Source of the DNA: Thermodesulfobacteriota bacterium
GTDB taxonomy: Bacteria > Desulfobacterota > BSN033 > UBA1163
Reading direction: 5' to 3'
Length of the DNA stretch: 64,000 nt
NCBI GenBank assembly: GCA_036769565.1
Contig: DAIPKW010000004.1
Span: 3,669 to 67,668, forward strand
Shown: positions 27,002 to 56,999 of the stretch, piece after piece
Layout: each line of letters starts with the position of its first letter
How positions within the stretch are numbered: position 1 is the first letter of the stretch
Translations under genes and position numbers: made by a program
Notes under the pieces: generated by a model
What the model saw: only the letters and a program-made list of their open reading frames with translations
The model's database searches: none
Told to the model about the DNA's origin: nothing

Positions 27002-27047
27002 GAGATATTGATTGACTTACTTCCTTCCGTCACAAAAAGGAGAGACC

Positions 27048-32649: not shown

Positions 32650-32664
32650 TTGATTTCCTCCTCT

Positions 32665-34021: not shown

Positions 34022-34777
34022 CTATATTGCTATCTTCATGAGGTCTTCTGCGAGAAGAATTTCGCCCTGGAAGACCTTTTTACATTGATCTAAGATGTCA
34101 TATTGGTCACAGAGGGGATAGAGGTGGGTGAGGAGGAGTTTTTTGCAGTGGGATTCTTTAGCAACCCTTCCTGCCAGAGAGGGTGTAAGATGGCCCTCCA
34201 CCTTTTTTTGATCTGGAAAGGAGCATTCCAGAACGAGGAGGTCTGCCTTCCAGGCAAGACTCACAAGATTTTCACAGTAGTCTGTATCTCCAGAGATGAC
34301 GATTGACTTCCCCTCTCCCCATTCAACTCGATAGCCAATACTCTCAGGAAGATGAGCCATGGATTTTGAGAGAATTTTTATCCCATCCAGAAGAAGAGGG
34401 GAGGAGACGACTTCCTTCACTGTCAATTGGTAAGGCTGGGGTTCTATCCAGGCAGCATAGAGGTTTTTTAACATCTGGAAATGCTGTTTGAATCCGCAGC
34501 CTCCGACCAGAGTCAATTCCTTTTGGCGCGGGAGCTCTCCATACTTACATGCAAACAGGATTGGGACCAGATCTGCTATATGGTCGGGGTGGATATGAGT
34601 ATAGAGAAGGAGATCAATATCTCGATAGGTTATCCCCACTTCGAGCATCCTCCTTAATATTCCTGGACCGCTGTCAATCACAATATGACGACTCTTCAAA
34701 GAGAGAAGTAAGCCAGGAGAAGCTCTTCTTAAAGAGGGAATGCCTGTTCCAGAGCCCAGTATGATCAATTCTGGCAT
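34022..34777 (-). CDS. MBL-fold metallo-hydrolase (RNase Z/ElaC-like short form)
   Basis: 'ILGSGTGIP' and the 'HIHPDHIADL' metal-binding HxHxDH motif, 251 aa. Confidence 0.75.
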   Translation of the reverse strand: MPELIILGSGTGIPSLRRASPGLLLSLKSRHIVIDSGPGILRRMLEVGITYRDIDLLLYTHIHPDHIADLVPILFACKYGELPRQKELTLVGGCGFKQHFQMLKNLYAAWIEPQPYQLTVKEVVSSPLLLDGIKILSKSMAHLPESIGYRVEWGEGKSIVISGDTDYCENLVSLAWKADLLVLECSFPDQKKVEGHLTPSLAGRVAKESHCKKLLLTHLYPLCDQYDILDQCKKVFQGEILLAEDLMKIAI

Positions 34778-35128
34778 GATGATCTCAACCTCAAGCTTTT
34801 ATAAGTTAACATAAAACGATGAAATTGCAACCCCGATGGCTCGACTTCCCGTATATTCGGATTTACCCATACTTTTTGGTCATTAAAAAGGTTGACTTGA
34901 TTTTTAGGCCGTATTAAAATTTTTGAAAAGGAGACGTCAATTAGCAAAGTCTTTGGAAACATCATTGGTCTGAAACCCAATCAGATCAGGCGGATTGAGT
35001 ATATCTATCGGAGGAAGATCCCACCCGAGAAGATCGTCACTCCTGAAGTTGCCCACCTTTTATTCGACCTCTCCAGAGAAATTCATCGGCAAATCGGAAT
35101 CCTTATCGGAAGGAGAGGAGCTATCGAA

Positions 35129-36694: not shown

Positions 36695-36803
36695 TATATG
36701 AAATTAAAATTTTTCGATCTCTGATTAGGCGAAGACCCTTTTGAAATCCAGTCTGGGTCATAGTTTGACTAATTCACTTTAGATCGTTGGCAAAAGAGGA
36801 TCG

Positions 36804-38276
36804 ATGATGGAAAACCATCTGCATACCTTTGAGGAATATCTTACCTTCGATGACGTCTTATTGGTCCCTTCTTATTCCGAGGTCTTACCAAAAGAGGTGG
36901 ATATCTCCACCTTACTGACTCGGGAGATCCGGTTGAATATCCCTCTGGTCAGCGCAGCCATGGACACCGTGACTGAGTCAAGGACAGCTATAGCCATGGC
37001 TCAAGAAGGAGGAATAGGAATCATCCACCGCAATCTTTCTATCACGGATCAGGCATTGGAGGTGGATAAGGTGAAGAAGTCGGAGAGTGGAATGATTCTT
37101 AACCCCATCACCATGGATCCTGACCAGAAGATCCACGAAGCCCTGGAGGTGATGAGGAGATACCGGATATCAGGAGTTCCCATCACCCGAGAGGGCAAGC
37201 TCGTTGGAATTCTCACCAACCGAGACCTCCGATTTGAGAAGAGGCTGGACGAGAAGATCTCAACGGTCATGACCAAGGACCGGCTCATCACGGTCCCTGT
37301 GGGAACAACGCTTGAGCAGGCCAAAGAGATCCTTCACCAGAACCGGATCGAGAAATTACTGGTTGTCGATGCTCATAACAATTTGAAAGGTTTGATCACC
37401 ATCAAAGATATCGAGAAGATGAGGAAGTACCCCAACTCTTGTAAGGATGCCCATGGACGGCTTCGAGTGGGAGCGGCGATTGGAACGGGAAAGGATCGGG
37501 AACCGAGAACGGAAGCGCTCATTCGAGCAGGACTCGACGTTCTGGTTATCGATACGGCCCACGGCCATACCAAGGATGTCCTGGAAGCCATCCGTGATAC
37601 AAAAAAGAACTTTCCGGGCTGTCAGTTGATCGCTGGAAACATCGCTACCAGAGAGGGGATGCTCGATCTCATCAAGGCAGGGGTGGATGGGGTTAAGGTT
37701 GGCGTTGGGCCAGGCTCAATCTGTACTACGCGGATTATTGCAGGTGTGGGCGTCCCCCAGCTTTCTGCAATCCGTGAGGTCGCTGAGGTCTCAGAGCAGT
37801 ATGAGATGCCCATCATTGCCGATGGAGGGATTAAATTTTCAGGGGATATCACTAAGGCCCTTGCCGCCGGAGCCCATTCAGTAATGATCGGGAATCTATT
37901 TGCTGGCACCGACGAAAGCCCTGGTGAGATCGTTCTCTACCAGGGGAGAAGCTATAAAGTATATCGGGGTATGGGCTCTTTGGAAGCGATGAGGGAGGGG
38001 AGTAAGGATCGCTACATGCAGGCAGAGGTTGAGAGTGAAACGAAACTGGTTCCCGAGGGAATTGAGGGAAGGGTTCCTTATCGAGGTGCCCTCTCTTTCT
38101 GTATCCATCAGCTCGTTGGTGGACTCAAGGCAGGCATGGGATATATGGGCGCAAAGAATATTCCAGAGATGCGGCAGAAGGCTCGATTCATCCGGATCAC
38201 TTCCTCTGGTTTAAAAGAGAGCCATGTCCATGATGTCATCATTACCAAGGAGGCTCCCAATTATAGATTGGAATAG
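36804..38276 (+). CDS. guaB: IMP dehydrogenase
   Basis: '[10 protein letters not shown]', a CBS pair and the catalytic '[11 protein letters not shown]' loop, 490 aa. Confidence 0.95.
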
Positions 38277-38404
38277 GCTTCTCAAGAGAGAAGAAGATCA
38301 TGAGAACATCCCTCTGGGAGAGATTGAGAGATCTGGACGCCACTCACACCGACCTGTAGAGATAGGGATTTCGGGCAAAGCGAGAAGGGAAAAAGGGGGT
38401 TACC

Positions 38405-40348
38405 TTGAAGAAAAAAACTATTTTGCTCTTGCTTATCATCGTCCTCTCTCTGCTTTACTACCTTGGTTTTCTAACCCGAAAAGAGATGCTTCCCCTATCG
38501 AAGGAATTCCTCTCCGCAGAGAGTTCTTCCACGATCGAACCGGTGCTTGATCTTAAAGGGGTAGGGGTTATCAAATCGAAGATAGCGGAAAGGAAACCCC
38601 CTTCGTTTGATCAGAAGGAGCTGGATCAACTATACCAGATTCAATTAGATAAGGGGGTTCGTAATCTTTCTACGCTCTCTTTATTCCTGGTTAGGGAGGC
38701 CCGAAAAGCGAGGGAATCTGGTCAACTGGATCGCGCCATCGATCTGGCAACCTATGCCCACCGATTTTCACCAAAACTCCCACAGCCCTACTTTGAACTG
38801 GCGAAGGTCCGATGGAAGCAGAAGCCGTTTCAACTCGACGAAATCTTTCCAGAGATCCTAAAGGGATATAGAGCCAAATTCAGCTACTTTCCCTCCTCGC
38901 TTTTCGTCTTTTATAATGGGGTTTACATTCTCTCCAATGCGATCCTAATGGCTTTCATCATTTTTGGGATCATCCTCCTCTGGAAATACTTTCCAATCTA
39001 TCTCTATGATATCCGTAGAAATTTGACGCTTGTGGTTCCCAATCTATTTATCAACGGGTTGAAGATCTTCATTCTTTTTATTCCCTTTTTTCTTCGGTTC
39101 GATATCTTGTGGGCGATTCTCTACTGGAATATTCTTTTATGGGGTTTTGTACCGTCCAGGGAGAGACAGATCGTTTTGGTCTTTTTAATCGTTTTGGTCT
39201 ATTTACCTTTCGTTCTTCGTACCTCCTCCGCATCTTTAAACAGTCCTGCCTCCGAGATTGTCTTGGAGTTACATGAATCGAACTATGAAAACTGGGACAA
39301 GATGACAGAAGAGAAATTGAAATCATGGTTGTTAAACCATCCCGATGACGTTCAGGTTCTTTTCACCCTGGGACTGATCGAAAAGAGGCAGGGACGCTAC
39401 ACGCAAGCCGAAGACTTTTATCGGAGAGTGATCGACTATTCCCCTGAGTTAAGCGAGGCCTATTCCAATCTGGGGAATGTTTATTTAGCACAGAAACAGA
39501 TCCGGATGGCCGTTGAATCCTATCAGCGCGCGGTCGAACTCAATCCAAATAAGGGCGGCTATCACTTCAATCTCTATCGTGCCTATTCTCAAGAAACCTT
39601 TTTCTCAAGTAAATCTGAGGAAGCCTTCCAAATGGCCAGATCCATCGATCCTAAATTGGTTCGGTACTATTCTTCAATCGATTCTCCCAACATGAACCGA
39701 TTGGTCATTGATGAAATTCTGACCCACCAGCAGCTCTGGAATCGATTATTGGATGTTTATACTGGAGGAAAAGGGTTACTGTTTCAATTCTTCAGGGTTT
39801 GGTTTGAAAGGATCCCCTCGGCCATTCCATTTCTATCTCCCATCTTCTTTATAGCCTTCCTGGTCGGGATGTCGAGGTATACACGAGCCAAACGTTTCCT
39901 GACCCGATGTCCAATATGCGGGAATGCGACTCATCGGCTCTATTTAGGCCCATCCACAACCTCAGGAAAGGAATTCATCTGTTTTAACTGCTACCGCCTA
40001 TATGCCCAGAAGGAGAAGGTCCATCCCAAGCTCAAAGAAAAAAAGTCCCTCCAGGTCCATGCCTTTCAGAAACAGGACCATTTTATGGGGACATTTCCTT
40101 CCTACTTCTTTATCGGGTTCAGCCAACTCTGGAGGGGCCATGCGTTCAAGGGATTATTGCTCCTTTCCATCTTTTTCATTATCGTTTTGAGATTTCTCTT
40201 CTGGCATGGAGTCCTTCCTGGGTTGGACCTGGGAGTACTCTTTTCATGGTGGAGCTTCTTTTTTTGGGGAGGCCTTTTCGTTCTCTTCTGGTTTCTCAAC
40301 TTTCGATGGGTTCGTCGCTTAAAGCCAGAGTTCAAGGTTCCCAGATAA
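38405..40348 (+). CDS. polytopic membrane protein with TPR repeats and a C4 zinc-ribbon (function unknown)
   Basis: 647 aa, TTG start with SD aaaaggggg. Signal/anchor, about 4 TM helices, a TPR block ('AEDFYRRVIDYSPELSEAYSNLGNVYLAQKQIRMAVESYQRAVELNP'), one TM helix, 'CPICGN...CFNC', then 2-3 C-terminal TM helices. Confidence 0.55.
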   Translation: MKKKTILLLLIIVLSLLYYLGFLTRKEMLPLSKEFLSAESSSTIEPVLDLKGVGVIKSKIAERKPPSFDQKELDQLYQIQLDKGVRNLSTLSLFLVREARKARESGQLDRAIDLATYAHRFSPKLPQPYFELAKVRWKQKPFQLDEIFPEILKGYRAKFSYFPSSLFVFYNGVYILSNAILMAFIIFGIILLWKYFPIYLYDIRRNLTLVVPNLFINGLKIFILFIPFFLRFDILWAILYWNILLWGFVPSRERQIVLVFLIVLVYLPFVLRTSSASLNSPASEIVLELHESNYENWDKMTEEKLKSWLLNHPDDVQVLFTLGLIEKRQGRYTQAEDFYRRVIDYSPELSEAYSNLGNVYLAQKQIRMAVESYQRAVELNPNKGGYHFNLYRAYSQETFFSSKSEEAFQMARSIDPKLVRYYSSIDSPNMNRLVIDEILTHQQLWNRLLDVYTGGKGLLFQFFRVWFERIPSAIPFLSPIFFIAFLVGMSRYTRAKRFLTRCPICGNATHRLYLGPSTTSGKEFICFNCYRLYAQKEKVHPKLKEKKSLQVHAFQKQDHFMGTFPSYFFIGFSQLWRGHAFKGLLLLSIFFIIVLRFLFWHGVLPGLDLGVLFSWWSFFFWGGLFVLFWFLNFRWVRRLKPEFKVPR

Positions 40349-40360
40349 GGAGAGAGGGAT

Positions 40361-41473
40361 ATGGCTCTACAAGGAACATTAAAGGACTTTAGCATCACAG
40401 AGATTATACAACTGGTTGGCCAACAGCTCAAAACAGGGGTCCTTTGGATACGCCACAGAAAAAAATTGGTCGAAATCTCTTTTGTGGATGGGATGATCGT
40501 CCATGTTCACTCCAATTTCCGGGGGAAGAGAGATCTGATCGGTGAGATTCTCGTCAAGGCCAAATTGATCACCGAAGAACAATTAGAGAGTGTTCTTAAA
40601 ATTCAGAAGGAGACATTGAAGTATACCGGAGAGATTCTGGTGGATCTAGGGCTCTTGACGAAAGAGGAAGTCTTAAGGGTGATTGCAACCCAGGTCTACG
40701 AAACGATCTACGATCTTTTCTGGTGGGAGGATGGGATATTTAGTTTCGATCTCAAAATGGTGGAGAGTTATAAGAAGATTCCATTTGCCCTGAGCACTGA
40801 GCAGGTCCTATTGAACATCCTCCGGATGGTGGATGAGTGGTCAGAGATTGAGAAGAAGATCGTCTCCCTGAACCTCGTCTTGCGAAAATCCTTAAGGAAA
40901 GAAGAACAATCGGACGATATCCTCGCTTCCCAAAACATGTTGCGGGAGAAGTTGTCTTCGGAGCAGGAGTTGCTCTACAACCTTGTCGACGGAACTCGGA
41001 CCGTCCAAGAGATTATTGATCGGAGCCTTTTCGGAAGGTTTAATGCCTGCGAGACCTTGGTCAGTCTTATGGAGATGGGATTGATTGAGGCGGTGGGCAT
41101 AAAGACCCCGACCTTGCTCAAAAAGGTGAGCACGATCAATTTCAAAGAGGCGCTGGCCTTTGCCTATTACGGAGCCTTCTTGATCTTTATCTTTCTCCTC
41201 CTCATCTACTTTAAACCCAATTTTTTACGTCACTTTTGGGACTCGAAGATCGAACGGGTTGATATGGAGACGCCTGCCCTTTTTGTCCACCGAGCTCAAC
41301 TCGACCGGATACGGAACGCACTGGAGATATTCTATTTGGAAAGAGGGGTTTACCCCCAACGGCTTGAGGAGTTGGTGACCGCCCAGCTCCTCCGGAAAAG
41401 CGACCTCTTCTATCACAAAGGGATGTCCTATCAGTATGAGCTGAAAGACGGTAAATATATTTTGAAACATTGA
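40361..41473 (+). CDS. DUF4388-like domain / single TM / GspG-pseudopilin-like C-terminal domain fusion protein
   Basis: N-terminal 'GTLKDFSITEIIQLVGQQLKTGVLWI' is a DUF4388-type motif. TM helix 'ALAFAYYGAFLIFIFLLLIYF'. C-terminal 'RNALEIFYLERGVYPQRLEELV...SYQYELKDGKY' resembles the GspG pseudopilin fold ('YRLDNGRYPTTEQGLQALV...YQY'). Confidence 0.5.
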   Translation: MALQGTLKDFSITEIIQLVGQQLKTGVLWIRHRKKLVEISFVDGMIVHVHSNFRGKRDLIGEILVKAKLITEEQLESVLKIQKETLKYTGEILVDLGLLTKEEVLRVIATQVYETIYDLFWWEDGIFSFDLKMVESYKKIPFALSTEQVLLNILRMVDEWSEIEKKIVSLNLVLRKSLRKEEQSDDILASQNMLREKLSSEQELLYNLVDGTRTVQEIIDRSLFGRFNACETLVSLMEMGLIEAVGIKTPTLLKKVSTINFKEALAFAYYGAFLIFIFLLLIYFKPNFLRHFWDSKIERVDMETPALFVHRAQLDRIRNALEIFYLERGVYPQRLEELVTAQLLRKSDLFYHKGMSYQYELKDGKYILKH

Positions 41474-41532
41474 AGCCCAGTCATTCCCGTTGATCTCATT
41501 CCTCTCTCATCCCATGATACCGAAGGAAAAGA

Positions 41533-43092
41533 ATGAGCCCTTCTTCCAATTTCGATAAAATTCTTATCCTCGATTTTGGTTCCCAGTATACCCAATTGAT
41601 CGCCCGTCGCGTGAGAGAATGTCGGATCTATAGCGAGATTCAACCTTACGATTTTCCACTGGAGAGAATCAAAACCCTCTCTCCCCAAGGGATCATTCTC
41701 TCAGGAGGGCCTTCGAGTGTTTATGAGCTGGGAGCCCCTTCCTGCGATCAAAGGCTTTTCGACATGGGGATTCCCATTTTAGGAATCTGTTATGGGATGC
41801 AGTTAATCGGCGAACTCTTAGGGGGAGAGGTCGCCCATTCTGAGAAAAGGGAGTATGGAAAAATTCGTTTGACGATCGATCGTGGGGGAAGCCTGTTTAA
41901 AGGGGTTGGAAGAAAAGGAGATTCGTTCCAAGTCTGGATGAGCCACGGCGATCAGATCCGGCGTTTGCCCCGTGGATTTCATGCTTTGGCCCATTCGAGC
42001 CATACACCTTTTGCTGCCATCGGAGATTCGAAAAGAAAGATTTACGGACTTCAATTTCATCCCGAGGTGGTCCACACGCTTCACGGGATTGACATTCTCC
42101 GAAATTTTCTATTCCATGTTTGTGGCTGCCAACGTCTTTGGGACATGCGTTCGTTCTTAGAGGAGGCGACGCTTCAACTGAAGAAGCGGATCGGTTCGGG
42201 AAGGGTGATCTGCGGTTTGAGCGGAGGCGTCGATTCTACAGTGGTTGCTCTTCTTCTGCATCGAGTGATCGGAGATCATTTAAAATGTATCTTTGTCAAT
42301 AATGGACTTTTGAGGCGGAATGAAGCCTCGCAGGTCGTAGAACTCTTCACGCAACATTTCCATATTCCACTCATCTATGTGGATGCTGAGAAGCGGTTTT
42401 TAAAACGGCTCAAGGGGGTAACAGATCCGGAGGAGAAGCGGAAGCGGATCGGTAGAGAGTTTATTGCCGTTTTTGAAAAGGAGGCAAGAAAGATTGGAGG
42501 CGTAAAGTTTCTTGCACAGGGGACCCTCTATCCCGATGTGATTGAAAGCACCTCTTGGAAGGGACCCTCCGCAATGATCAAAAGCCACCATAATGTAGGT
42601 GGATTGCCGGAGAAGATGCGGTTAAAGCTGGTGGAACCCTTACGAGAATTGTTTAAGGACGAAGTGAGAGCTTTGGGCAGAGAGCTGGGTCTTCCTCGGG
42701 AGGTGATCCAGAGGCAACCTTTTCCCGGGCCAGGGCTGGCTGTCCGAATCATCGGCGAGGTCGATCAAGAGAGGCTTGAAATTTTAAGGGATGCCGATGC
42801 GATCGTCATGGAAGAGATGAAGAAGAACGATTTGTTAGACCGGGTCTGGCAATGCTTTGCGGTCCTTCTGCCGATTAAGACCGTTGGTGTCATGGGCGAT
42901 TTCCGAACTTATGAGCATGTGGTTGCCTTGAGGATTGTGGAGAGCCAAGACGGCATGACCGCCGATTGGGTCAAGCTGGACCATCGAATCTTAGAACAGA
43001 TGGCAAACCGAATCATCAATGAAGTCAGAAAAGTGAATCGAGTCGTGTATGACATCAGTTCGAAACCACCCAGCACGATAGAATGGGAGTAA
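41533..43092 (+). CDS. guaA: GMP synthase (glutamine-hydrolysing)
   Basis: GATase domain ('GICYGMQL'), PP-loop 'SGGVDSTV' and a 'KPPSTIEWE' C-terminus, 519 aa. Confidence 0.95.
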
Positions 43093-43125
43093 GTCGAAGA
43101 GATATCGAAGTCCGAATATCGTCAT

Positions 43126-43149
43126 GCCAGAGGCAGATCCGCCTCTGGC
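43126..43149 (+). other. perfect 9-bp hairpin (gccagaggc-agatcc-gcctctggc) after guaA; no U-tract
   Basis: Seen in the sequence. Confidence 0.3.
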
Positions 43150-43315
43150 AGAAAATACGAATCAAATCCAAATTTTCAAAATTCAAATGGTTTGAGCTTT
43201 TTTGTTTCGAACATTTTTAAAATGGTCATTTGAGATGGTTTCGAATTTCAAATTTGTGTTTCGGAGTTCAATCCAACCTTGACATTTCTCTTTTAGCATT
43301 TGAAAGTTAAGTGAT

Positions 43316-49582: not shown

Positions 49583-50986
49583 TTAGGACTCGTCCATTGG
49601 GTCCGGTCCCTGATTCAAACCATATTTTTCCAGTCGGTAGCGCATCGATCGAAAATTAATATGGAGTAATTCAGCGGCCTTCTTTTTAATCCCCTTTGTC
49701 CTTTCGAGGGCTTTCAGGAGAAGGGTCTTCTCGATCTCCTCCACCATCTTTTCGAGATCGATCCCTTCATTCGGAATCTCAAGATCCAGAGGGCTTTTGG
49801 GAACCTGAAGTTGTTCTTCAAGGTAGGAATGGATATTCTGGGCGGTCAACTCCTGAGAGGTCTCAAGGGCAACAGCCCTCTCAACGATATTCTGGAGCTC
49901 TCTCACATTTCCAGGATAGTCATATTGGATCAGCATCCGGAGCGCTTCAGGAGTGATATGGGAGATGGGCTTTCCAAGCTCTCCGGAGTATCGCTTTAAA
50001 AAATGGTTGGCCAGGGCCGGAATATCTTCCTTTCGCTCCCGGAGTGGGGGGAGCTTGATCTGAATGACATTGAGTCGGTAGAAGAGGTCTTCTCGAAACA
50101 GTTTCTTTTGAACGGCTTCTTCCAGGTCTTTATTGGTTGCAGAGATGATCCGAACATCGACTCGAATATCTTCCGTTCCTCCCACGCGCTTAAATTCTCG
50201 ATCCTGTAAGACGCGAAGCAATTTGACCTGCATCATTAAGGGAAGCTCACTGATTTCATCCAAAAAGAGCGTTCCCTCATCCGCTAACTCAAACAGCCCC
50301 TTTTTCGTGGTAATGGCATCGGTAAAGGCTCCCTTCATATGGCCAAAGAGTTCGCTCTCGATCAGGGCTTCAGGAATGGCGCCACAGTTTAAGTTAACGA
50401 AGGGTTTCTCCTTACGCGGGCTATTATAGTGAATGGCTTTGGCCACCAGCTCCTTTCCTGTTCCACTCTCACCCGTGATCAAAATGTTGGTTTTGGTAGG
50501 AGCCACCCTCTCCAGAAGGTCATAGAGCTCAAGCATTCTAGGACTCTGGCCAATGATATTTCCATAATGGTATCGATCCCGGACCACCTGTTTGAGCAGG
50601 AGGTTTTCCCTCTGAAGATGCCTCTTCTCCAGAGCATTCTGAATGATCATCTTGATCTCATCGATCTTAAACGGTTTGGTGATATAGTCATAAGCCCCCT
50701 CCTTCATCGCCTTAATGGCCGTATCGGCTGAGGCATACGCAGTAATCATGATCACAATGGTCTCTGGAGAGACCGATTTAATCTTCTTGAGAGCAGAGAG
50801 GCCATCCTGCCTGGGCATTCGGATATCCACGAGGGCCAGATCGAAGATCTCCTTTTCAATCAACTTGATCACCTCTTCACCATTCGAGGCGAGTGTGACC
50901 TTATAGCCCTCCTTTTTGAGCATGATCTCAAGAAATTCCCTCATGCTCTTTTCATCATCCGCGACCAGAATCTTATCTTGAACCAT
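49583..50986 (-). CDS. pilR: sigma-54-dependent response regulator (NtrC family; PilR-like by context)
   Basis: REC domain ('ILVADDE...DLALVDIRMP'), sigma-54 AAA+ core ('GESGTGKE', 'GAFTDA', 'ESELFGH') and a C-terminal Fis-type HTH. It is directly downstream of a PilS-like kinase and the pilBTC genes. Confidence 0.8.
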   Translation of the reverse strand: MVQDKILVADDEKSMREFLEIMLKKEGYKVTLASNGEEVIKLIEKEIFDLALVDIRMPRQDGLSALKKIKSVSPETIVIMITAYASADTAIKAMKEGAYDYITKPFKIDEIKMIIQNALEKRHLQRENLLLKQVVRDRYHYGNIIGQSPRMLELYDLLERVAPTKTNILITGESGTGKELVAKAIHYNSPRKEKPFVNLNCGAIPEALIESELFGHMKGAFTDAITTKKGLFELADEGTLFLDEISELPLMMQVKLLRVLQDREFKRVGGTEDIRVDVRIISATNKDLEEAVQKKLFREDLFYRLNVIQIKLPPLRERKEDIPALANHFLKRYSGELGKPISHITPEALRMLIQYDYPGNVRELQNIVERAVALETSQELTAQNIHSYLEEQLQVPKSPLDLEIPNEGIDLEKMVEEIEKTLLLKALERTKGIKKKAAELLHINFRSMRYRLEKYGLNQGPDPMDES

Positions 50987-51001
50987 TCTCGTCTTCAGTC
51001 C

Positions 51002-52729
51002 TCATTGGGCTTGATGAATATCGGGTTCAGCAGGCAGGAAGATCGTAAAGGTGGACCCTCTGCCCATTTCACTCTCCACCTTGATCCCTCCATTATGGTT
51101 TTCAATAATTTTATGGACGATCGAGAGTCCCAACCCCGTTCCTCCTTCTTTGGTGGAATAGAAAGGCTCAAAGATTTTCTCCTTTTCTTGGGGCGGGATA
51201 CCGTTCCCAGAATCGGCAATGACAATCTTCACCCAAGCCTCTCCAACCCCTGACGAACCTGAAGGAAGGTTTCCTCCCCAAGCCTCCTCGGTCTTCTCAA
51301 CGGAGATCCGAATCTCACCCCTTTCCGGGATGGCCTGAGCGGCATTGATCAGCAGATTCCAAAAGACCTGCCTCATCTGATCCGCATCGATCAAGGCCAA
51401 CATTTCACCGTTGGGTTGGCTTCGGGTAATCTGGAGCCCCTCATGAAAGGCCTGAGAGTGGATGAAGAGCTCAACGGTCTCGTCGAGGATCTTTCCAACC
51501 TCCCAAAGCGATCGTCTCATTTGAGGAGGATGAGCGAAGTAGAGGAAGTCAGTGATCAATGAATTGAGTCGTTCCGACTCTCTGAGCGTGATCTCCATCA
51601 AATGGTTCTGTTGTGGGTCGAGGTGAAGCTCCGACTTTAACATCTGGATGGCACCGCTCAGCGATGCAAGAGGGTTTCGAATCTCATGGGCCATCCCCGC
51701 TGCCAAGGAACCAATGGCAGCCATTCGGTCATGTCGCTTCATCTGTTCTTCCATCTCTTTAACCCGGGTGATGTCCTGAAAGATGAGGGTATGTCCGATC
51801 AAATCCCCTTTGGGATCGGTCAGAGGAGAGATGGAAAACCCTAAGTAGAAAGACCCATCGTGAGGGGTGGGAAGACGGGCCTCGTAACGCTGGTAATCGG
51901 TTGGAAGACTCGGTTTTCGTTTCATTTCCTCGATAACCCTGCTGATCTCGGGGAAAAGACCGTCTATAGAAAGACCTCTCAATTCAATTCCCTTCCGGTT
52001 TAGGATCTTTTCTGCGGTACGGTTGAGGAAATTGATCCGTCCATCCAGATCAATAGTGAGCAGACCACTGTCGAGGCTATTCACGATATTCCGGTTGAAG
52101 ATCTCAAGTTGATCATAATCTGCCTGTTTCTGAATCAGTTCGCCCTTTTTCTTCTTTAATTCCTCAGAGATCATACTGCTCAGAAAGGCGACGATATAAT
52201 AGGCGGCTAAATAGATGACCAGGGAGTAAAAGATCTGACTGGCCTCAGGCGGATCGAGCTGACCTGGGAGACGGACCCACTCATAGAGTTGAAACAGAAG
52301 GATCAGACCATAAAGAAAGGTGGAGAGGGATGCTGAATAGAAAGCTCCCCGCTTGTAGAAGAGGATACTGCAGCCGATGATCGAGAAGATGTAAACGATC
52401 GGGAAGAAGCTCTCCTTTCCGCCCGTATAGTAGATGAGACCTGCAATGAAAAGATGGTCAATGGCGATCTGAACAATCATGAAACGACGAAGATCATTGA
52501 CCCGTTTCAGGAGAAGAACATAGGCGATTGTGAGCAGATAGAAGAGCATGATGAAATAGTAGAATTGGTTGGTGGTCGGAATGAAGAAGTACTTCTTCTC
52601 GTAGATTTGGAAAAGATAGGTAATGGTCAGTAAGAGGGTAAGAATGATTACCCGGCCGAGCATCAATCCCAATACATTTTTATACATTCGTTGTTGGGTG
52701 CTGGCGAGAACGTTAAGATTTGGCCCCAT
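51002..52729 (-). CDS. pilS: sensor histidine kinase with N-terminal multi-TM domain, PAS, HisKA, HATPase (PilS-like)
   Basis: About 6 N-terminal TM helices, a PAS segment and an H-box 'MAHEIRNPLASLSGAIQML'. The ATP-binding N and G boxes are 'NLLINA' and 'GTGLGLSI'. It is paired with the sigma-54 regulator. Confidence 0.75.
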   Translation of the reverse strand: MGPNLNVLASTQQRMYKNVLGLMLGRVIILTLLLTITYLFQIYEKKYFFIPTTNQFYYFIMLFYLLTIAYVLLLKRVNDLRRFMIVQIAIDHLFIAGLIYYTGGKESFFPIVYIFSIIGCSILFYKRGAFYSASLSTFLYGLILLFQLYEWVRLPGQLDPPEASQIFYSLVIYLAAYYIVAFLSSMISEELKKKKGELIQKQADYDQLEIFNRNIVNSLDSGLLTIDLDGRINFLNRTAEKILNRKGIELRGLSIDGLFPEISRVIEEMKRKPSLPTDYQRYEARLPTPHDGSFYLGFSISPLTDPKGDLIGHTLIFQDITRVKEMEEQMKRHDRMAAIGSLAAGMAHEIRNPLASLSGAIQMLKSELHLDPQQNHLMEITLRESERLNSLITDFLYFAHPPQMRRSLWEVGKILDETVELFIHSQAFHEGLQITRSQPNGEMLALIDADQMRQVFWNLLINAAQAIPERGEIRISVEKTEEAWGGNLPSGSSGVGEAWVKIVIADSGNGIPPQEKEKIFEPFYSTKEGGTGLGLSIVHKIIENHNGGIKVESEMGRGSTFTIFLPAEPDIHQAQ

Positions 52730-52841
52730 AGAACTCGATCATTGGTCTTCATTGAGGCTGGCTAATTTCAGTAAGCCCTGTTTGAAAGTTTTTAACTTTC
52801 TAACGGGAAGTTTCACAGCCCAATAGAAGCTCAGCAAGCAA

Positions 52842-54047
52842 TTACCCAACGGCCGATGCCATCTGAAAGATCGGTAGATACATGGCAATGACAACTCCTC
52901 CGATCACGACTCCCAGAAAGATCATCAGAAAAGGTTCGAGAAGGGAGGTCATATTGCCTACAGCCACGTCAACCTCTTCTTCGTAGAAATCGGCGATCTT
53001 TGCCAACATGGAGTCCAAGGCGCCTGTCGATTCTCCTACGGAGATCATCTGGATGACCATGGGTGGAAAGATCCCACTGCGGCCCAAAGGCTCAGAAATG
53101 GTTTCGCCCTCTCGGATGCTTGCCCTTGCTTCGAGTATGGCTGTCTCAATTGTCCGATTTCCGGCTGTCTTCGAAACGATCATGAGCCCGTCAAGGATGG
53201 GAACGCCACTGCTGACGAGTGTCCCAAGGGTCCTTGAAAATCGGGCTACGGCAACTTTTTTAAGAAGCATTCCGAAGACAGGCAGCTTCAGAAGAAGGGG
53301 ATCGACGATCGTCTTTCCTGCCTCGGTCTTATAAAACTTCCGGAAAAGATAGACCAAGAGAATCGCCAAAGGAATAAGGACGATGATATATTTTTTGATA
53401 AATTTGCTTAGGGTGAGAACGATAAGGGTCGGTAGTGGAAGCGACTGACCAGCGGATTTGAACATCGTCTCAAAGACAGGGATGACGAAGATCATCAAGA
53501 TCATCACCACCATCACCGCAACCGTCACGATGATGCCAGGATAGATCAGGGCGCCCTTAACTTTCTTTTTTAAGGCTTCTGCCTTTTCAATGTAGTTGGC
53601 CAATCGGAGCAGAATATTGTCGAGGATTCCACCTTCCTCACCGGCCACCACCAAGTTCGTGTAGAGATCATCGAAAGTGCCGGGATGTTTTTTGAGAGAT
53701 CCGGCAAAGGTGGAACCTCCTTCGACATCCTCTCGTAAATCACGAATGATATTTTTAAAAATCTTGTTCTCCTGTTGGGAGGCGAGGATATCGAGCGATT
53801 GGACCAGAGGTAATCCGGCATCAATCATCGTTGCCAATTGACGGGTGAAGATGGCGACGAGTCGCTGCTTCACCTTCTTACCAAATGGCAGGGAAATCTT
53901 AACCGCTCTTCCTTTGGCCGTGATTTTGGTGGGAATAATGTTCTGTTGGTGAAGTTGGATGCGGATGGCAGCCTCGCTCGGAGCTTCCATCTCTCCCTTT
54001 TTGATCAATCCCTTGCCTGTTTTCCCTTCCCATTGGTAGATTGGCAT
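52842..54047 (-). CDS. pilC: type IV pilus assembly platform protein PilC (GspF family)
   Basis: 401 aa with two T2SSF repeats and 3 TM helices. It sits in a pilB-pilT-pilC operon. Confidence 0.9.
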   Translation of the reverse strand: MPIYQWEGKTGKGLIKKGEMEAPSEAAIRIQLHQQNIIPTKITAKGRAVKISLPFGKKVKQRLVAIFTRQLATMIDAGLPLVQSLDILASQQENKIFKNIIRDLREDVEGGSTFAGSLKKHPGTFDDLYTNLVVAGEEGGILDNILLRLANYIEKAEALKKKVKGALIYPGIIVTVAVMVVMILMIFVIPVFETMFKSAGQSLPLPTLIVLTLSKFIKKYIIVLIPLAILLVYLFRKFYKTEAGKTIVDPLLLKLPVFGMLLKKVAVARFSRTLGTLVSSGVPILDGLMIVSKTAGNRTIETAILEARASIREGETISEPLGRSGIFPPMVIQMISVGESTGALDSMLAKIADFYEEEVDVAVGNMTSLLEPFLMIFLGVVIGGVVIAMYLPIFQMASAVG

Positions 54048-54073
54048 AATCCCTCCCCTTCCCCTATCTCCGT

Positions 54074-55174
54074 TTAAATGACCTGTTTCCCAATCTTTCT
54101 ATAGGGGATATTCGCATTGGTTAGCATCTGATAGAACTCTTCCAAGTTATGGCTTCGGTCGATGGCGTCTTCCACAGAGATGAGATGGCGTTCGACAAGG
54201 GCGAGGAGTGCCTGGTTCATGGTCTGCATACCGAATTTTGACTGACCGACCTGCATCTGGGAGTAGATCTGTTGAACTTTGTCCTCACGGATCAGGTTTC
54301 GAATGGCAGCGGTTGGGATCATCAACTCCATGGCCATGACACGACCTTTCCCACGCATTCTTGGAATGAGCTGTTGGGACATAACTCCCTCAAGGACGAA
54401 GGAGAGCTGTGTCCGCACCTGTTGTTGTTGATGAGGAGGAAAGACGTCAATGATCCGGTTGATCGTCTCGACGCAGGAATTCGTATGGAGCGTTGCAAAG
54501 GTGAGATGGCCTGTCTCTGCGGTGAGGAGGGCGGCCTGAATCGTCTCAAGATCCCTCATTTCGCCGATGAGGATAATATCGGGATCCTGACGCAGAATAT
54601 GCTTAAGGGCATAGCCAAAACCTTTTGTATCGGAGTAAATCTCCCTCTGATTGACGATGGAATTTTTATGGCGATGGATATATTCAATCGGATCTTCGAT
54701 CGTCACAATATGGGCGTTCCGATCATTATTGATCTTGTCGATCATGGCTGCAAGGGTGGTCGATTTTCCCGAACCCGTAGGGCCTGTTACGAGAACGAGG
54801 CCCTTGGGTCTCTTAATCAACTCATTCACAGCAGGTGGAATTCCAAGTTCATGGAAGTTGAGGATATTGAATGGGATGGCACGGAAGACGCCCGCCACAG
54901 CTCCCCTCTGCATAAAGATATTTCCACGGAAACGGCTTAACCCTTTTATGCCAAAAGAGAAATCTAACTCTATCTCTTCCTCGAACGTGTGGCGCTGGGC
55001 ATCGGTCAGAACGCTGTAGCAGAGCCTTTTCGTATCGGTAGGGGTAAGGATAGTATTATCGAAGCTCACCAGCTTTCCGTCAATCCTGAACTTTGGTGGG
55101 ACGCCTGTTGTAATGTGCAAATCAGAGGCCTTCTTTTCGATCATCGTTTCAAGCAGTTTCTCTAACTCGATCAT
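54074..55174 (-). CDS. pilT: type IV pilus retraction ATPase PilT
   Basis: Walker A 'GPTGSGKST', the 'AIRNLIREDKVQQIYS' PilT signature and 366 aa. Confidence 0.9.
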   Translation of the reverse strand: MIELEKLLETMIEKKASDLHITTGVPPKFRIDGKLVSFDNTILTPTDTKRLCYSVLTDAQRHTFEEEIELDFSFGIKGLSRFRGNIFMQRGAVAGVFRAIPFNILNFHELGIPPAVNELIKRPKGLVLVTGPTGSGKSTTLAAMIDKINNDRNAHIVTIEDPIEYIHRHKNSIVNQREIYSDTKGFGYALKHILRQDPDIILIGEMRDLETIQAALLTAETGHLTFATLHTNSCVETINRIIDVFPPHQQQQVRTQLSFVLEGVMSQQLIPRMRGKGRVMAMELMIPTAAIRNLIREDKVQQIYSQMQVGQSKFGMQTMNQALLALVERHLISVEDAIDRSHNLEEFYQMLTNANIPYRKIGKQVI

Positions 55175-55205
55175 AGTGGTCCTCTACTTCCTTTCCTTGT
55201 TGAAA

Positions 55206-56999
55206 TTATCGATCGTCCACGGTTGATCTGAAGACTTCTTCAATGGAAGTCAGCCCATCTCGGATCTTGATGATTCCGCTCTGCCTCAAGGTCTTCATGC
55301 CCAAACGGATGGCCTCTTTCTTTATTTCCGAAGTGGATGCTCGGGCCAAGATCAGTTCTTTGATCTCATCCTTAATGGCCATGACCTCATAGAGCCCGAC
55401 CCGACCTTTATAGCCTGTATTGTTGCAAATGGGACATCCTTTTCCTTTGTAAACTTGAAAGGTTTTTACCTCGTCTGGCGCAACCCCAAGATCGATCAGT
55501 AGCTGGGGGTGAACCTTGATCGGTTCCCGACACTCTGTGCAGATTTTACGGACCAATCTCTGAGCCAGGATGAGGATGACAGCAGATGAGATCAAAAAGG
55601 GTTCAATACCCATATCAATCAATCGGGTTATGGTGCCCGGTGCATCATTGGTGTGAACGGTGCTAAGAACGAGGTGGCCAGTCAGGGCTGCTTGGACAGC
55701 AATCTGGGCGGTCTCAAAATCTCGGATCTCGCCTACCATGATGATATCCGGGTCCTGTCGGAGAAAGGACCTCAGGGCTGATGCGAAGGTGAGTCCGATC
55801 TCCTCATGCATCTGAACCTGATTGATTCCCATAAAATTATACTCAACAGGATCTTCAGCAGTGGTGATATTCTCCGTCTCTTTATTCAATTCAGATAGCG
55901 CTGAATAGAGGGTGGTCGTCTTTCCACTTCCTGTAGGTCCTGTGACGAGAATCATCCCCACGGGTTTTCGAAGGGCATTTTTAAAATCTTCAAGAGACGA
56001 TTCTTCGAATCCCAGTTTGGTCATGTCCAATTGCAAGGCCGATTTGTCCAGAAGACGGAGCACGACCTTTTCTCCAAAAAGGACAGGGACCGTAGAGACC
56101 CGGAAGTCCATCTCCCGGCCTTTGCCGAGGCGCATTTTGATCCGGCCGTCCTGTGGAAGACGCCTTTCTGCAATATCGAGCTTGGCCATGATTTTTAGAC
56201 GGGAGACGAGGGCATTTTTAATCTGTATTGGAAGGGTCATCTCTCGCCTCAGAACACCATCAACACGATAACGGACCCGGAAAGTCCTCTCATAAGGTTC
56301 GAAGTGGATGTCGCTTGCACCCAATTTGATCGCCTTGATCAGTATTCCGTTGACGATCTTGATGATCGGCCCTCCGATCTCATCCGTTGCATCTTCCGCT
56401 TGAGTTTCGACAACCTCAACATTATCAATCGCTCCTTGGACCAACTTGTCAAATTCATCGACATCGACCAGAGTGCTGTCCATGAGATCAAAATCAGCAT
56501 CCGTAGATTTATCATCATCCAAAGTATAATCTTTGGCATTGATGGTTGCGGTGCCCATTGAGGCTGTAGCCCCTCCACCGCTGTAATATTTTTTAATGGC
56601 ATCAACGATTTCTGTTTCCGAGGCAACTACCGGCTCGACATTGAACCCGGTCATAAACTTGATCTCATCGATGACGAAGATATTGCTTGGATCCGCCATG
56701 GCCAAGGTCAGTTTGGGGCCTACTCGGTTGATTGGGAAGATATAATATTTTTTGGCCATGCTTGACGGGATCAACTTAATGACATTGGGGTTGATTTCGA
56801 GTTTGGAGATTTTTACAGATGGGACTCGGTACTGAGCGCTCAGGAAGGCGAGGAGTTCATCCTCCTTAATAAAGCCCAACTTGATCAGGTTAGATTCTAA
56901 GCGGCCTCCTTTCAATTTCTGTTCATCCTGTACCTTTTTTAGCTGATCAGGAGTAATAATGTTTCGCTTAATGAGGAGGTCGGCTAATCGTTCTGACAT
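55206..56999 (-). CDS. pilB: type IV pilus assembly ATPase PilB (GspE family)
   Basis: N-terminal T2SSE_N domain, Walker A 'GPTGSGKTT', the tetracysteine 'CTEC...CPIC' motif and 597 aa. Confidence 0.9.
   Translation of the reverse strand: MSERLADLLIKRNIITPDQLKKVQDEQKLKGGRLESNLIKLGFIKEDELLAFLSAQYRVPSVKISKLEINPNVIKLIPSSMAKKYYIFPINRVGPKLTLAMADPSNIFVIDEIKFMTGFNVEPVVASETEIVDAIKKYYSGGGATASMGTATINAKDYTLDDDKSTDADFDLMDSTLVDVDEFDKLVQGAIDNVEVVETQAEDATDEIGGPIIKIVNGILIKAIKLGASDIHFEPYERTFRVRYRVDGVLRREMTLPIQIKNALVSRLKIMAKLDIAERRLPQDGRIKMRLGKGREMDFRVSTVPVLFGEKVVLRLLDKSALQLDMTKLGFEESSLEDFKNALRKPVGMILVTGPTGSGKTTTLYSALSELNKETENITTAEDPVEYNFMGINQVQMHEEIGLTFASALRSFLRQDPDIIMVGEIRDFETAQIAVQAALTGHLVLSTVHTNDAPGTITRLIDMGIEPFLISSAVILILAQRLVRKICTECREPIKVHPQLLIDLGVAPDEVKTFQVYKGKGCPICNNTGYKGRVGLYEVMAIKDEIKELILARASTSEIKKEAIRLGMKTLRQSGIIKIRDGLTSIEEVFRSTVDDR

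Follow-up and report, generated by a model that had tools for sequence, protein, structure and literature searches.

A conserved gene pair between guaB and guaA encoding a predicted MshEN–PATAN membrane protein and its polytopic partner

The c-di-GMP-binding MshEN domains of MshE (5HTL), PilF (8PFA, 6F8L), and PilB lie at the N-terminus of secretion ATPases and contain two 24-residue motifs, separated by a spacer of exactly five residues, with a glycine at position 3, hydrophobic contact residues, and a terminal glutamine. Gly3 and Gln24 make backbone and polar contacts to c-di-GMP (PMC5013675). In the extended consensus the motif opens with (R/K/L)LG, and leucine at position 1 is associated with nanomolar affinity in PilF GSPII-B (PMC11731258). 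From sequence, only a few kinds of c-di-GMP receptor are predictable, and cyclases far outnumber the known receptors in many organisms (PMC12448109). M. xanthus has 17–22 predicted MshEN-domain proteins, some of them with untested c-di-GMP binding or function (PMC8844925, PMC5013675).

A second group of described relatives comprises the cyanobacterial PatA-type response regulators PixE, PixG, LsiR, and PatA together with the M. xanthus PATAN protein SgnC, which have an N-terminal PATAN domain of ~250 residues with a two-repeat helical insertion, the "alpha-clip". The Synechocystis PATAN domain alone goes to the inner membrane, where it binds the N-terminal region of PilB1 as well as PilC's N-terminal domain, and social motility of M. 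xanthus requires a PATAN protein (bioRxiv 10.1101/2021.06.11.447907). Here we describe a locus in which both kinds of domain occur in one membrane protein. It lies in a 64,000-nucleotide stretch of DNA from a Thermodesulfobacteriota bacterium, referred to as the window (Table 1).

Table 1. Positions of genes and domains in the window
Feature	Position	Strand	Remarks
guaB	36804..38276	+	upstream flank; IMP dehydrogenase carrying a CBS pair; Pfam matches to IMPDH (E=1e-165) and CBS
guaB–geneA spacer, 128 nt	38277..38404	+	nothing recognisable as promoter, terminator, or RNA family
geneA	38405..40348	+	647 aa, TTG start; polytopic inner-membrane protein (predicted), TPR and Zn ribbon; conserved partner of geneB
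geneA aa 23–164, first periplasmic domain	38471..38896	+	linker and helical repeats; behind N-in signal-anchor TM
geneA aa 165–274, four-helix TM bundle	38897..39226	+	hydropathy; AF2 helices 162–207, 212–229, 234–244, 251–278
geneA aa 275–473, periplasmic TPR domain	39227..39823	+	
geneA aa 502–529, predicted Cys4 zinc ribbon (CPICG...CFNC)	39908..39991	+	inside strongly basic cytoplasmic loop, aa 493–559
geneA aa 580–637, C-terminal TM hairpin	40142..40315	+	AF2 helices 580–598, 615–637; hydropathy
geneB	40361..41473	+	370 aa, ATG start; bitopic protein
geneB aa 1–57, PATAN N-terminal beta-strand part	40361..40531	+	Pfam PF14332, aa 4–84; 82% identity in close clade
geneB aa 59–111, MshEN-type unit	40535..40693	+	LIGEILVKAKLITEEQLESVLKIQ - KETLK - YTGEILVDLGLLTKEEVLRVIATQ; predicted c-di-GMP-binding
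geneB aa 112–170, PATAN C-terminal part	40694..40870	+	W..G.F...RM.DEWP block; most conserved segment
geneB aa 196–250, winged-helix-like subdomain	40946..41110	+	
geneB aa 262–286, single TM helix	41144..41218	+	hydropathy
geneB aa 305–370, GspG-type pseudopilin head	41273..41470	+	periplasmic; without prepilin leader
guaA	41533..43092	+	GMP synthase; downstream flank; Pfam GATase and GMP_synt_C
pilR-pilS-pilC-pilT-pilB cluster	49583..56999	-	type IV pilus; 8 kb downstream; context only

Gene order and conservation of the pair

A preliminary description of this DNA held that guaB and guaA were parted by two co-directional genes, and the coordinates and Pfam matches both agreed with it; the spacing given there as "13 nt apart" corresponds to 12 bases between the end of geneA and the start of geneB. 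Both geneA and geneB are real genes, with homologs numbering in the hundreds. Shine-Dalgarno-like purine runs were found upstream of each, that of geneA being a GGGGG run ahead of the TTG start, and this start agreed with the N-termini of the homologs (MKK...). There was no consensus promoter or terminator site in the guaB–geneA spacer or at the other junctions of the pair with the gua genes, the overall counts of the scans being at chance level, and an Rfam search of the spacer returned nothing at E<=1.

The order hflX-guaB-A-B-guaA-dnaE-accA-mutL, followed by pilR and pilS on the opposite strand, was found in 42 species-level Thermodesulfobacteriota genomes. Among 80 species-level genomes, guaB-A-B-guaA was kept in 42, down to 37% geneB identity, and guaB stood upstream of the pair in 42 or more related loci. 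Identity in the closest clade was 56–70% for geneA and 74–81% for geneB; counted over the loci of the close clade, geneB identity was 73–81% in most and 66–71% in a few, similar to the values for guaA, dnaE, and accA. The geneB family comprised 274 clusters at 50% identity (E<1e-30). A geneA partner lay directly upstream of geneB in 77 of 83 loci, usually with a gap of about -1 to 30 nt, the two being strongly conserved together. The adjacency of the two genes and the zinc ribbon of geneA were also kept in Myxococcota, where leuS-lptE is upstream of the pair and phoH-ybeY at its other side, and in Nitrospiria, where the corresponding neighbours are lpxL-pgsA-plsY and mqn. These comparisons indicated that the conserved unit is the A-B pair itself, and that the pair is ancient, vertically inherited, and kept in three bacterial lineages or more.

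Adjacent guaB and guaA genes are found in many bacteria, for example E. coli, and the preliminary description had named an insertion as one of two possibilities. A recently acquired or mobile cassette splitting a guaBA operon would fit the tight packing of geneA and geneB. However, the GC content and skew of the pair were normal and matched those of the flanks, the borders contained neither mobile-element genes nor repeats nor a tRNA, a defence-system search gave no match, and species-level genomes with this arrangement ran to dozens, pair and flanks diverging in parallel. Composition, borders, and wide synteny refute a recent mobile insertion for practical purposes, and we give it almost no credence.

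The position of the pair might instead be functional, with geneA and geneB co-expressed with guaB and guaA so that the supply of guanine nucleotides, GTP being the precursor of c-di-GMP, is coupled to c-di-GMP signalling at the membrane. The persistence of the four-gene order in the 42 genomes, the predicted c-di-GMP-binding motif of geneB, and the junctions free of terminator- or promoter-like sites would fit such coupling, the last proving nothing with scans at chance level. Against it, the pair was equally conserved away from any gua gene, in 23 clear and 7 partial loci of Myxococcota, Nitrospiria, and other lineages, and it was intact in four loci where guaA was missing from the site (L006, L007, L044) or degraded (L045). 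The adjacency is explained by inheritance, since the whole 20-kb region is syntenic. A functional link to purine biosynthesis, as proposed earlier, is therefore very improbable, and a metabolic operon can carry a conserved "interruption" without this implying functional coupling. The place of the pair between guaB and guaA appears to be a frozen accident of gene order rather than a metabolic link, possibly one that provides constitutive co-expression.

Domain architecture of geneB

The order of domains in geneB was a cytoplasmic PATAN domain with an embedded MshEN-type unit, a winged-helix-like subdomain, a TM helix, and a periplasmic GspG-like head, so that about 255 residues are predicted to be cytoplasmic. 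On the PATAN/DUF4388 model (PF14332, PatA_N; cutoff 25 bits), geneB scored 105.7 bits (E=2e-30) in two stretches; PF14332 was also matched by each of 45 diverse family members. The C-terminal PATAN segment showed 89% identity in the close clade, and W122, G125, F129, D158, and E159 were invariant. The AF2 model of the cytoplasmic region was of low confidence for aa 31–155 (pLDDT <50). The N-terminal PATAN domain of ~250 residues with its two-repeat insertion is shared with PixE, PixG, LsiR, PatA, and SgnC. In contrast to the PatA-type response regulators, in which a C-terminal CheY-like receiver (REC) domain follows the PATAN domain, geneB has no REC domain, there being no Pfam Response_reg match in the protein, and the TM helix and GspG-like domain stand in its place; the protein is itself membrane-anchored, runs on into a periplasmic pseudopilin-like domain, and is always accompanied by a dedicated polytopic TPR/Zn-ribbon partner.

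The helical insertion of the PATAN domain corresponded to the MshEN-type unit, which the preliminary description had missed. Using the motif definitions of PMC5013675 and PMC11731258, we located two motifs of 24 residues each, aa 59–82 and aa 88–111, on either side of a KETLK spacer. geneB scored 52.2 bits against NCBIfam NF053729, a c-di-GMP motif model with a cutoff of 38, and the profile of the geneB family matched solved c-di-GMP-binding MshEN domains with E-values from 2e-24 to 5e-6, including PilF (6f8l, 2e-24), MshE (5htl, 2.4e-11), and PilB (5tsg, 2e-10). The spacer had five residues in 133 of the 134 family sequences. Among these, Gly3 was kept in 132 (motif 1) and 127 (motif 2), Gln24 in 125 and 126, Leu17 in 122 and 95, and Leu21 in 125 and 76, respectively; the window protein has G61, Q82, G90, and Q111 at positions 3 and 24. 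The contact positions 2, 17, and 21 are hydrophobic in motif 1 (I60, L75, L79), and in motif 2 (Thr89, V104, I108) only Thr89 is off the pattern, a residue unique to the window protein at a position where 131 of 134 sequences have Leu, Ile, Met, or Val. Position 1 is Arg or Lys in 58 of 134 sequences in motif 1 and 101 of 134 in motif 2. In the window protein, L59 fits the extended R/K/L consensus, leucine replacing the first arginine as in the high-affinity PilF GSPII-B, whereas Y88 falls outside it.

The two motifs, exact spacer, Gly3, and terminal Gln are those of MshE, PilF, and PilB, as are the hydrophobic contacts except at Thr89, and the predicted unit is near-canonical and well preserved. 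In contrast to those proteins, the unit is embedded in a PATAN domain instead of heading a secretion ATPase, and geneB has neither an ATPase nor the C-terminal MshEN subdomain. With respect to the MshEN consensus, the window protein opens motif 2 with Tyr-Thr-Gly and places Lys where motif 1 has its turn Gly. Because four positions deviate in all (Leu59 and Tyr88 each replace Arg, Lys68 replaces Gly in motif 1, and Thr89 replaces Leu in motif 2), c-di-GMP binding by the window protein is not assured.

Proteins such as ToxR and CadC have a TM helix between a cytoplasmic and a periplasmic domain, a layout resembling that of bitopic geneB. geneB could be a membrane-anchored, ToxR-like one-component transcription regulator whose winged helix, next to the membrane, binds DNA and is set by c-di-GMP and by a periplasmic signal received through the head and geneA. 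MarR, TrmB, or HTH models of Pfam matched about 7 of the 45 family members (best 2e-6), in keeping with such a regulator. However, the MarR-type match in the sequence-profile comparison was not significant (E>=0.19), the AF2 confidence of the winged-helix region was moderate only (pLDDT 63–81), and winged helices often serve protein contacts. The winged helix also lies inside the ~250-residue region that is the PilB/PilC-binding domain in PixE, whose authors argue against DNA binding (bioRxiv 10.1101/2021.06.11.447907). We consider a DNA-binding role improbable.

Of 133 family representatives, 129 had a hydrophobic segment beyond aa 200. For the domain behind it, the window protein scored 13 bits against T2SSG (PF08334), below the cutoff of 21; 17 of 45 family members matched this model, with a best value of 1.3e-8, and a sub-profile of the head matched GspG/EpsG with E-values of 2.9e-5 to 1.9e-3. 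These matches indicated that the head is homologous to GspG. Shared with GspG, EpsG, and PulG, the major pseudopilins of type II secretion, were an alpha1C helix block, "AL..Y.L.N..YP...L..LV", a "DPWG.pY.Y" block, and the pilin fold. In contrast to these pseudopilins, geneB has a short head of about 65 residues, and its hydrophobic helix is internal, behind a cytoplasmic domain of 260 residues. There was neither an N-terminal class III (prepilin) signal peptide, with its peptidase site and Glu5, nor a conserved G-F-x-x-x-E before or in the helix of geneB, and no prepilin motif occurred anywhere within the window. Because it lacks a cleavable prepilin leader, the head is unable to be processed or polymerised like a pilin.

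The polytopic partner geneA

Hydrophobic segments and AF2 helices predicted that geneA is polytopic, with about eight TM helices. In the first periplasmic domain, aa 70–160 formed AF2 helices with pLDDT of about 80–88, and the homologue alignment showed conserved "LDxGIxNL" and "LAPDLP" blocks. P227 and E253 were invariant in the TM bundle. Pfam TPR matches lay at aa ~316–390, with E-values down to 1e-17 and scores above the family thresholds (TPR_1, 63.6 bits; TPR_2, 61 bits; TPR_11, 54.5 bits; all aa 316–390); TPR_11 and TPR_2 were matched by 22 of 22 diverse geneA members. The cytoplasmic loop of aa 493–559 had a net charge of +8 to +9.5. Within it C502, C505, C526, and C529, together with G506, were invariant across phyla in 22 diverse sequences, and in 75 of 77 partner ORFs the spacing between the CxxC pairs and the C-terminus was constant; these pairs, about 20 residues apart, constitute a predicted Cys4 zinc ribbon. 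A conserved interfacial segment, "G.GH.W.G...RG", precedes the C-terminal TM hairpin, and G571 and G583 were conserved. The product is given as 639 aa in one database entry (P0121).

Profile searches gave TPR for geneA and DUF4388 for geneB, so both architectures were as the preliminary description had claimed; its statement that neither corresponds to a characterised family was also supported, as these were the only models matching and we found no curated family and no paper covering either full-length protein. Database names were "tetratricopeptide repeat/hypothetical" for geneA and "DUF4388 domain-containing" for geneB, and we found neither a solved structure nor a curated family comparable to geneA. 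As candidates among TPR factors of type IV pili, the models of PilW (TIGR02521, 28.4 bits against a cutoff of 154), Tgl (NF033762, 25 against 225), and GltE (NF033758, 23.6 against 225) were rejected, the scores indicating generic TPR similarity only. PilW/PilF pilotins, Tgl, TadD, and FimV are lipoproteins or single-pass proteins, whereas geneA is predicted to be polytopic with a cytoplasmic Zn ribbon.

A possible role in type IV filament assembly

The two proteins make up a predicted two-protein inner-membrane module and are probably co-translated. We estimate at roughly 0.4 the probability that the pair is a transmembrane, c-di-GMP-responsive adaptor of the type IV filament machinery, a reading drawn from domain content only. 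A link to type IV pili is plausible because the PATAN, MshEN, and GspG-like domains all belong to the world of type IV pili and type II secretion. As we envisage it, geneA and geneB would form a complex, geneB would bind c-di-GMP in the cytoplasm, and its PATAN surface would engage the motor or platform of a type IV filament. The tethered pseudopilin head, with the TPR domains of geneA, may contact either pilins or the alignment complex in the periplasm, and the two proteins together could act as a c-di-GMP-responsive adaptor or brake on assembly of a type IV pilus or of a system like type II secretion.

GspL and PilM-PilN are bitopic connectors between a secretion or pilus ATPase and a periplasmic assembly complex: the cytoplasmic part can engage the N-terminus of the ATPase, there is one TM helix, and the periplasmic part contacts pseudopilins or the alignment complex. 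In GspL and PilM the cytoplasmic domains are actin-like and the periplasmic ones ferredoxin-like. geneB showed no detectable relationship to these proteins in sequence or fold, and the likeness is by analogy only.

The geneB family is large and strongly constrained, and its layout would allow a nucleotide signal from the cytoplasm to reach a periplasmic pilin-like domain directly. If correct, the adaptor reading would add a membrane-spanning route for c-di-GMP and PATAN control of type IV filaments, and it might help to explain the unidentified membrane anchors of the cyanobacterial PATAN regulators. In a bolder form, which we regard as distinctly doubtful, geneB would define a new class among the transmembrane effectors of c-di-GMP, a non-cleavable, membrane-tethered pseudopilin whose "leader" is replaced by a PATAN–MshEN sensor; with geneA it would be seated in the assembly platform of type IV filaments and gate pilin entry or motor engagement by cytoplasmic c-di-GMP, as a core, near-essential regulator common to Thermodesulfobacteriota, Myxococcota, and Nitrospirota.

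The pair could also have no connection with pili and belong to the envelope or cell surface, as a c-di-GMP-controlled factor for the biogenesis of the outer membrane, lipids, or polysaccharides or for homeostasis of the cell envelope, in which the head and the TPR domains are mere periplasmic protein-binding modules. The genes upstream of the pair in Myxococcota and Nitrospiria are envelope or housekeeping genes, the pair is conserved at the level of core genes, and the two large domains of geneA, both periplasmic, consist of TPR or helical repeats like those of many envelope-assembly factors. Glycosyltransferases such as NfrB, for which geneB gave a weak NCBIfam match, are also under the control of MshEN units (PMC5013675). 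However, the neighbourhoods vary between phyla and offer no consistent functional partner, neither protein has an enzyme domain, and the PATAN, MshEN, and GspG-like domains are each tied most often to type IV filament systems. We judge an envelope function unlikely.

For the adaptor reading, the neighbourhood offered mixed indications. The pil cluster of the window matched Sigma54_activat and REC, 6TM_PilS and HK, T2SSF, T2SSE, and T2SSE with MshEN in Pfam, and pilR and pilS hold the same downstream position in related loci of the clade; this proximity carries little weight because the whole 20-kb block is syntenic. Against a pilus role, the neighbours of the pair in Myxococcota and Nitrospiria were housekeeping or envelope-lipid genes, and none was a pilus gene. 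On the side of a pilus link, an MglA-like GTPase adjoined the pair in one locus (L054).

The geneA-geneB pair and its gene neighborhood

Two genes lie between guaB and guaA: geneA, which encodes a polytopic membrane protein, and geneB, which encodes a protein with a PATAN region, a c-di-GMP-type MshEN unit, one transmembrane (TM) helix and a pseudopilin-like head. Twelve bases lie between the two genes, each of which is preceded by a Shine-Dalgarno-like run. The ORF map, the Pfam matches of the flanking enzymes and the domain analysis bore out the positions and architectures that the preliminary description had assigned to both genes. The N-termini of homologs (MKK...) favored the TTG at 38405 as the putative start of geneA. 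A database entry (P0121) 99% identical to the partner of geneB has 639 aa, eight residues fewer than the TTG-initiated ORF (38405-38428). No Rfam family was found in 34500-44000 at E<=1. Neither promoter-like nor terminator-like sites were found in the gene junctions; these scans performed at chance level and did not establish an operon.

Genes and ORFs in the window
Feature	Position	Strand	Basis
Archaeal-type bifunctional FBP aldolase/phosphatase	23380-24480		PF01950, E=1.5e-161
MiaB-like radical-SAM gene	24410-25987		Longest ORF
Class I FBPase	26012-27001		
Class II aldolase-like gene	27012-28340		
SPFH/Band-7 protein and NfeD partner	31891-33987	-	
hflX	35129-36694	+	ORF map
guaB	36804-38276	+	ORF map; enzyme confirmed by Pfam
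geneA (647 aa, TTG start)	38405-40348	+	ORF map
geneB (370 aa)	40361-41473	+	ORF map
guaA	41533-43092	+	ORF map; enzyme confirmed by Pfam
dnaE	43316-46777	+	ORF map
pilB-pilT-pilC-pilS-pilR	49583-56999	-	Geobacter-like cluster

At E<1e-30, geneB homologs fell into 274 representative clusters, and at E<1e-10 into 2763; most of the matches listed were full length with 30-46% identity. A species-level scan of one genome per species, with a 10-sequence geneB alignment as the query, gave 80 loci; partner genes were counted in these and in three contigs fetched earlier. A large ORF ended just upstream of the geneB homolog in 77 of the 83 loci, usually -1 to 30 nt away, and the exceptions looked as if the contig had ended or the ORF was broken. 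The partner ORFs carried CxxC pairs whose distance from the C-terminus was constant. Alignment of geneA proteins from Thermodesulfobacteriota, Myxococcota (Archangium and Anaeromyxobacter) and Nitrospiria was collinear end to end, even where BLAST similarity was barely detectable (17-25% identity), and contained 15 invariant columns, including all four ribbon cysteines.

The order guaB-geneA-geneB-guaA was found in 42 of the 80 species loci, with geneB identity ranging from 81% down to 37%, and four more loci were truncated but compatible. The wider order hflX-guaB-geneA-geneB-guaA-dnaE-accA-mutL was also kept, with pilR/pilS next on the opposite strand. The gua position of the pair is ancient within one large clade, and GC content and skew over the pair were like those of the flanks. 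A recent insertion was therefore rejected, the insertion reading of the preliminary description was not supported, and arrival of the pair as a mobile element is barely credible. A defense system was also rejected, with no PADLOC match.

Twenty-three clear loci and 7 partial ones had no gua gene near the pair. In three loci (L006, L007, and L044), geneB was followed by dnaE with no guaA between them, and in a fourth (L045) all that remained of guaA were short fragments, which matched residues 8-32 and 469-518; the four organisms presumably encode guaA elsewhere. Retention of the pair does not depend on the gua position, which spoke against the purine-coupled reading of the preliminary description and makes a real coupling to guanine-nucleotide metabolism very unlikely. 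The order was leuS-lptE-...-geneA-geneB-phoH-7TM-HD-ybeY in Myxococcota and locus L041. In the Nitrospiria locus L064 it was lpxL-pgsA-plsY-geneA-geneB, with genes of the menaquinone (futalosine) pathway next. Since the pair also occurs without gua genes and among differing neighbors, it is an autonomous core-genome module, whose neighbors are lineage-specific housekeeping genes.

In locus L074 (12473-14968) and the Myxococcota loci, the pair was followed by phoH, a 7TM-receptor HD hydrolase and ybeY. This hydrolase belongs to the same family as PgpH, a c-di-AMP phosphodiesterase of Listeria. Myxococcota thus have a second cyclic-dinucleotide-related membrane protein two genes from the pair, but phoH-7TM-HD-ybeY is a common housekeeping arrangement.

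Domain architecture of the two proteins

GeneB matched DUF4388 in Pfam (current name PatA_N, the PATAN domain; E=2e-30), and the NCBIfam domain "c-di-GMP motif, MshE-related" was detected at aa 60-111 with 52 bits against a cutoff of 38. Direct reading of the sequence showed that the 24-residue MshEN motif occurs twice, at aa 59-82 (LIGEILVKAKLITEEQLESVLKIQ) and at aa 88-111 (YTGEILVDLGLLTKEEVLRVIATQ), with the five-residue spacer KETLK in between; the 53-residue c-di-GMP site solved in Vibrio cholerae MshE has the same layout (PMC5013675). A profile of 45 diverse geneB-family members matched the solved MshEN/GSPII domains of PilF (2e-24), MshE (2.4e-11), and PilB (2e-10). Motif conservation was analyzed in 134 sequences, consisting of the window protein and 133 cluster representatives (clustering at 50% identity). 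In motifs 1 and 2, respectively, Gly3 was present in 132 and 127, Gln24 in 125 and 126, Leu17 in 122 and 95, and Leu21 in 125 and 76 sequences, and the spacer had five residues in 133/134. Arg or Lys at position 1, the place of the stacking Arg, was found in 58/134 (motif 1) and 101/134 (motif 2), and the clade of the window protein has Leu59 and Tyr88 there. Mutants of this Arg in MshE lost affinity at most about fivefold (PMC5013675). PilF GSPII-B, with Lys and Leu at position 1, has a KD of 6 nM, and the consensus was widened to (R/K/L)LG, with hydrophobic replacement taken to predict very high affinity (PMC11731258). The window protein deviates at two further places: Lys68 replaces the turn Gly in motif 1, and Thr89 (40625-40627) stands at position 2 of motif 2, where Thr is unique among the 134 sequences and Leu, Ile, Met, or Val occurs in 131. 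The exact Thr89 sequence recurred in several metagenome records, indicating that it is not a read error. Binding of c-di-GMP by geneB is therefore likely but not assured.

The second half of the PATAN region (aa 112-170) was the most conserved segment of geneB, with 89% identity in the close clade. It is followed by a variable linker, a single TM helix at aa ~262-286 (a hydrophobic segment was present in 129 of the 133 representatives) and a C-terminal periplasmic domain of about 65 residues. Seventeen of the 45 geneB-family members individually matched Pfam T2SSG (best 1.3e-8), and a sub-profile from the TM helix to the C-terminus matched GspG/EpsG with E-values of 2.9e-5 to 1.9e-3, with both signature blocks aligned. 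On this profile evidence, the periplasmic domain is a GspG-type pseudopilin head. No prepilin leader was present in geneB; the hydrophobic helix is internal, with approximately 260 cytoplasmic residues before it, so that pilin-like processing and polymerization are not possible. GeneB was thus rejected as a true pseudopilin: it lacks the defining prepilin leader, despite the homology of its head to GspG.

An AF2 model of geneB built on 28 close homologs had a pLDDT of 54, with the PATAN/MshEN part below 50, and only its C-terminal and middle domains were used. Foldseek with the PATAN/MshEN part gave noise because of this low confidence, except for one winged-helix match; a winged-helix sub-profile had no significant match in the PDB. 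That geneB is a ToxR-like membrane-bound transcription factor acting via a winged helix is unlikely. Three proteins of 1455-1492 aa (P0248, P0249, and P0257) matched geneB residues 3-243 in five to six separate stretches and appear to be built as arrays of a repeated PATAN-MshEN-winged-helix module within one polypeptide.

GeneA and all 22 diverse relatives matched only TPR families. The AF2 model of geneA, built on homologs at 49-69% identity, was usable (pLDDT 75, pTM 0.73) and was combined with hydropathy and family-averaged charge to predict the topology. The predicted topology starts with a cytoplasmic N-terminus and TM1. Residues 23-164 would then form a periplasmic domain of linker and helical repeats, residues 165-274 a bundle of four TM helices in which P227 and E253 are invariant, and residues 275-473 a periplasmic TPR domain, with TM6 after it. 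The Cys4 ribbon (C502, C505, C526, and C529) would lie in a strongly basic cytoplasmic loop with a net charge of +8 to +9.5, before a conserved "G.GH.W.G...RG" segment and a last TM hairpin that would leave the C-terminus in the cytoplasm. Myxococcota homologs (L074, 7745-9988, and others) carry not two but three CxxC pairs (CxxC-x4-CxxC ... CxxC). Behind their N-terminal TM helix lies a long low-complexity insertion rich in Pro, Ala, and Glu, which brings them to lengths of 700-1180 aa; some of the longest may be over-extended ORF starts.

Possible function of the pair

The pair is a conserved two-gene membrane module made from known domains and carrying a likely c-di-GMP receptor. GeneB is a PATAN family member without the REC domain of PatA-type response regulators, and shares the MshEN-type unit with secretion ATPases, yet is not one of them. 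GeneA, a TPR protein like PilW, Tgl, and GltE, scored far below the cutoffs of these families. Database names went no further than "DUF4388 domain-containing" for geneB and "tetratricopeptide repeat/hypothetical" for geneA. In the openly accessible literature on DUF4388, PATAN, MshEN, pseudopilin, and SgnC (a PATAN protein of Myxococcus xanthus), neither a membrane-anchored PATAN-pseudopilin fusion nor a partner was described. Large and under strong constraint, the geneB family is unstudied; its architecture points to a way in which a c-di-GMP signal could cross the inner membrane.

The domain composition and topology of both proteins, the conservation of MshEN contact residues and the tight gene linkage were demonstrated here. 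As a mechanism, we propose that the two proteins would form an inner-membrane complex in which geneB binds c-di-GMP and its PATAN region engages the motor or platform of a type IV filament. The tethered, non-polymerizable pseudopilin head, possibly with the TPR domains of geneA, would contact pilins or the periplasmic alignment complex, and the module would serve as a transmembrane adaptor or brake that responds to c-di-GMP. In Synechocystis PixE, the PATAN region (residues 1-258), which is about as long as the cytoplasmic part of geneB, suffices to bind the N-terminal region of PilB1 and PilC's N-terminal domain, and also suffices for membrane localization and motility switching; social motility of M. 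xanthus requires a PATAN protein (bioRxiv 10.1101/2021.06.11.447907). In an uncultured delta proteobacterium (MFD03899.bin.1.233, L054, 5478-7996), the pair comes directly after a TPR protein and a small GTPase of 441 aa that is Ras/Arf-like (MglA-type), and a dGTPase-like HD protein follows it; this arrangement fits the reported link between PATAN proteins and the polarity GTPases MglA/MglB (bioRxiv 10.1101/2021.06.11.447907). The pil cluster lies 8 kb downstream of the pair, and its pilB carries an MshEN domain of its own (E=1.2e-21); this proximity counts for little, because the whole block is syntenic. No pilin gene followed pilR, on which mutL converges, and no prepilin-type G-F-T-L-I-E motif was found in any frame of the window. 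The main rival, an envelope function unrelated to pili, is possible but doubtful. The pilus-adaptor reading is the best available hypothesis, and we tentatively assign it a probability of about 0.4.

Other features of the window

Three fructose-1,6-bisphosphate enzymes are encoded within 5 kb (23380-28340), with the MiaB-like radical-SAM gene between them. The true start of this gene is probably further downstream, because its longest ORF overlaps the preceding FBP aldolase/phosphatase gene by 71 nt. The SPFH/Band-7 protein and its NfeD partner represent a second conserved two-gene membrane pair in the window.
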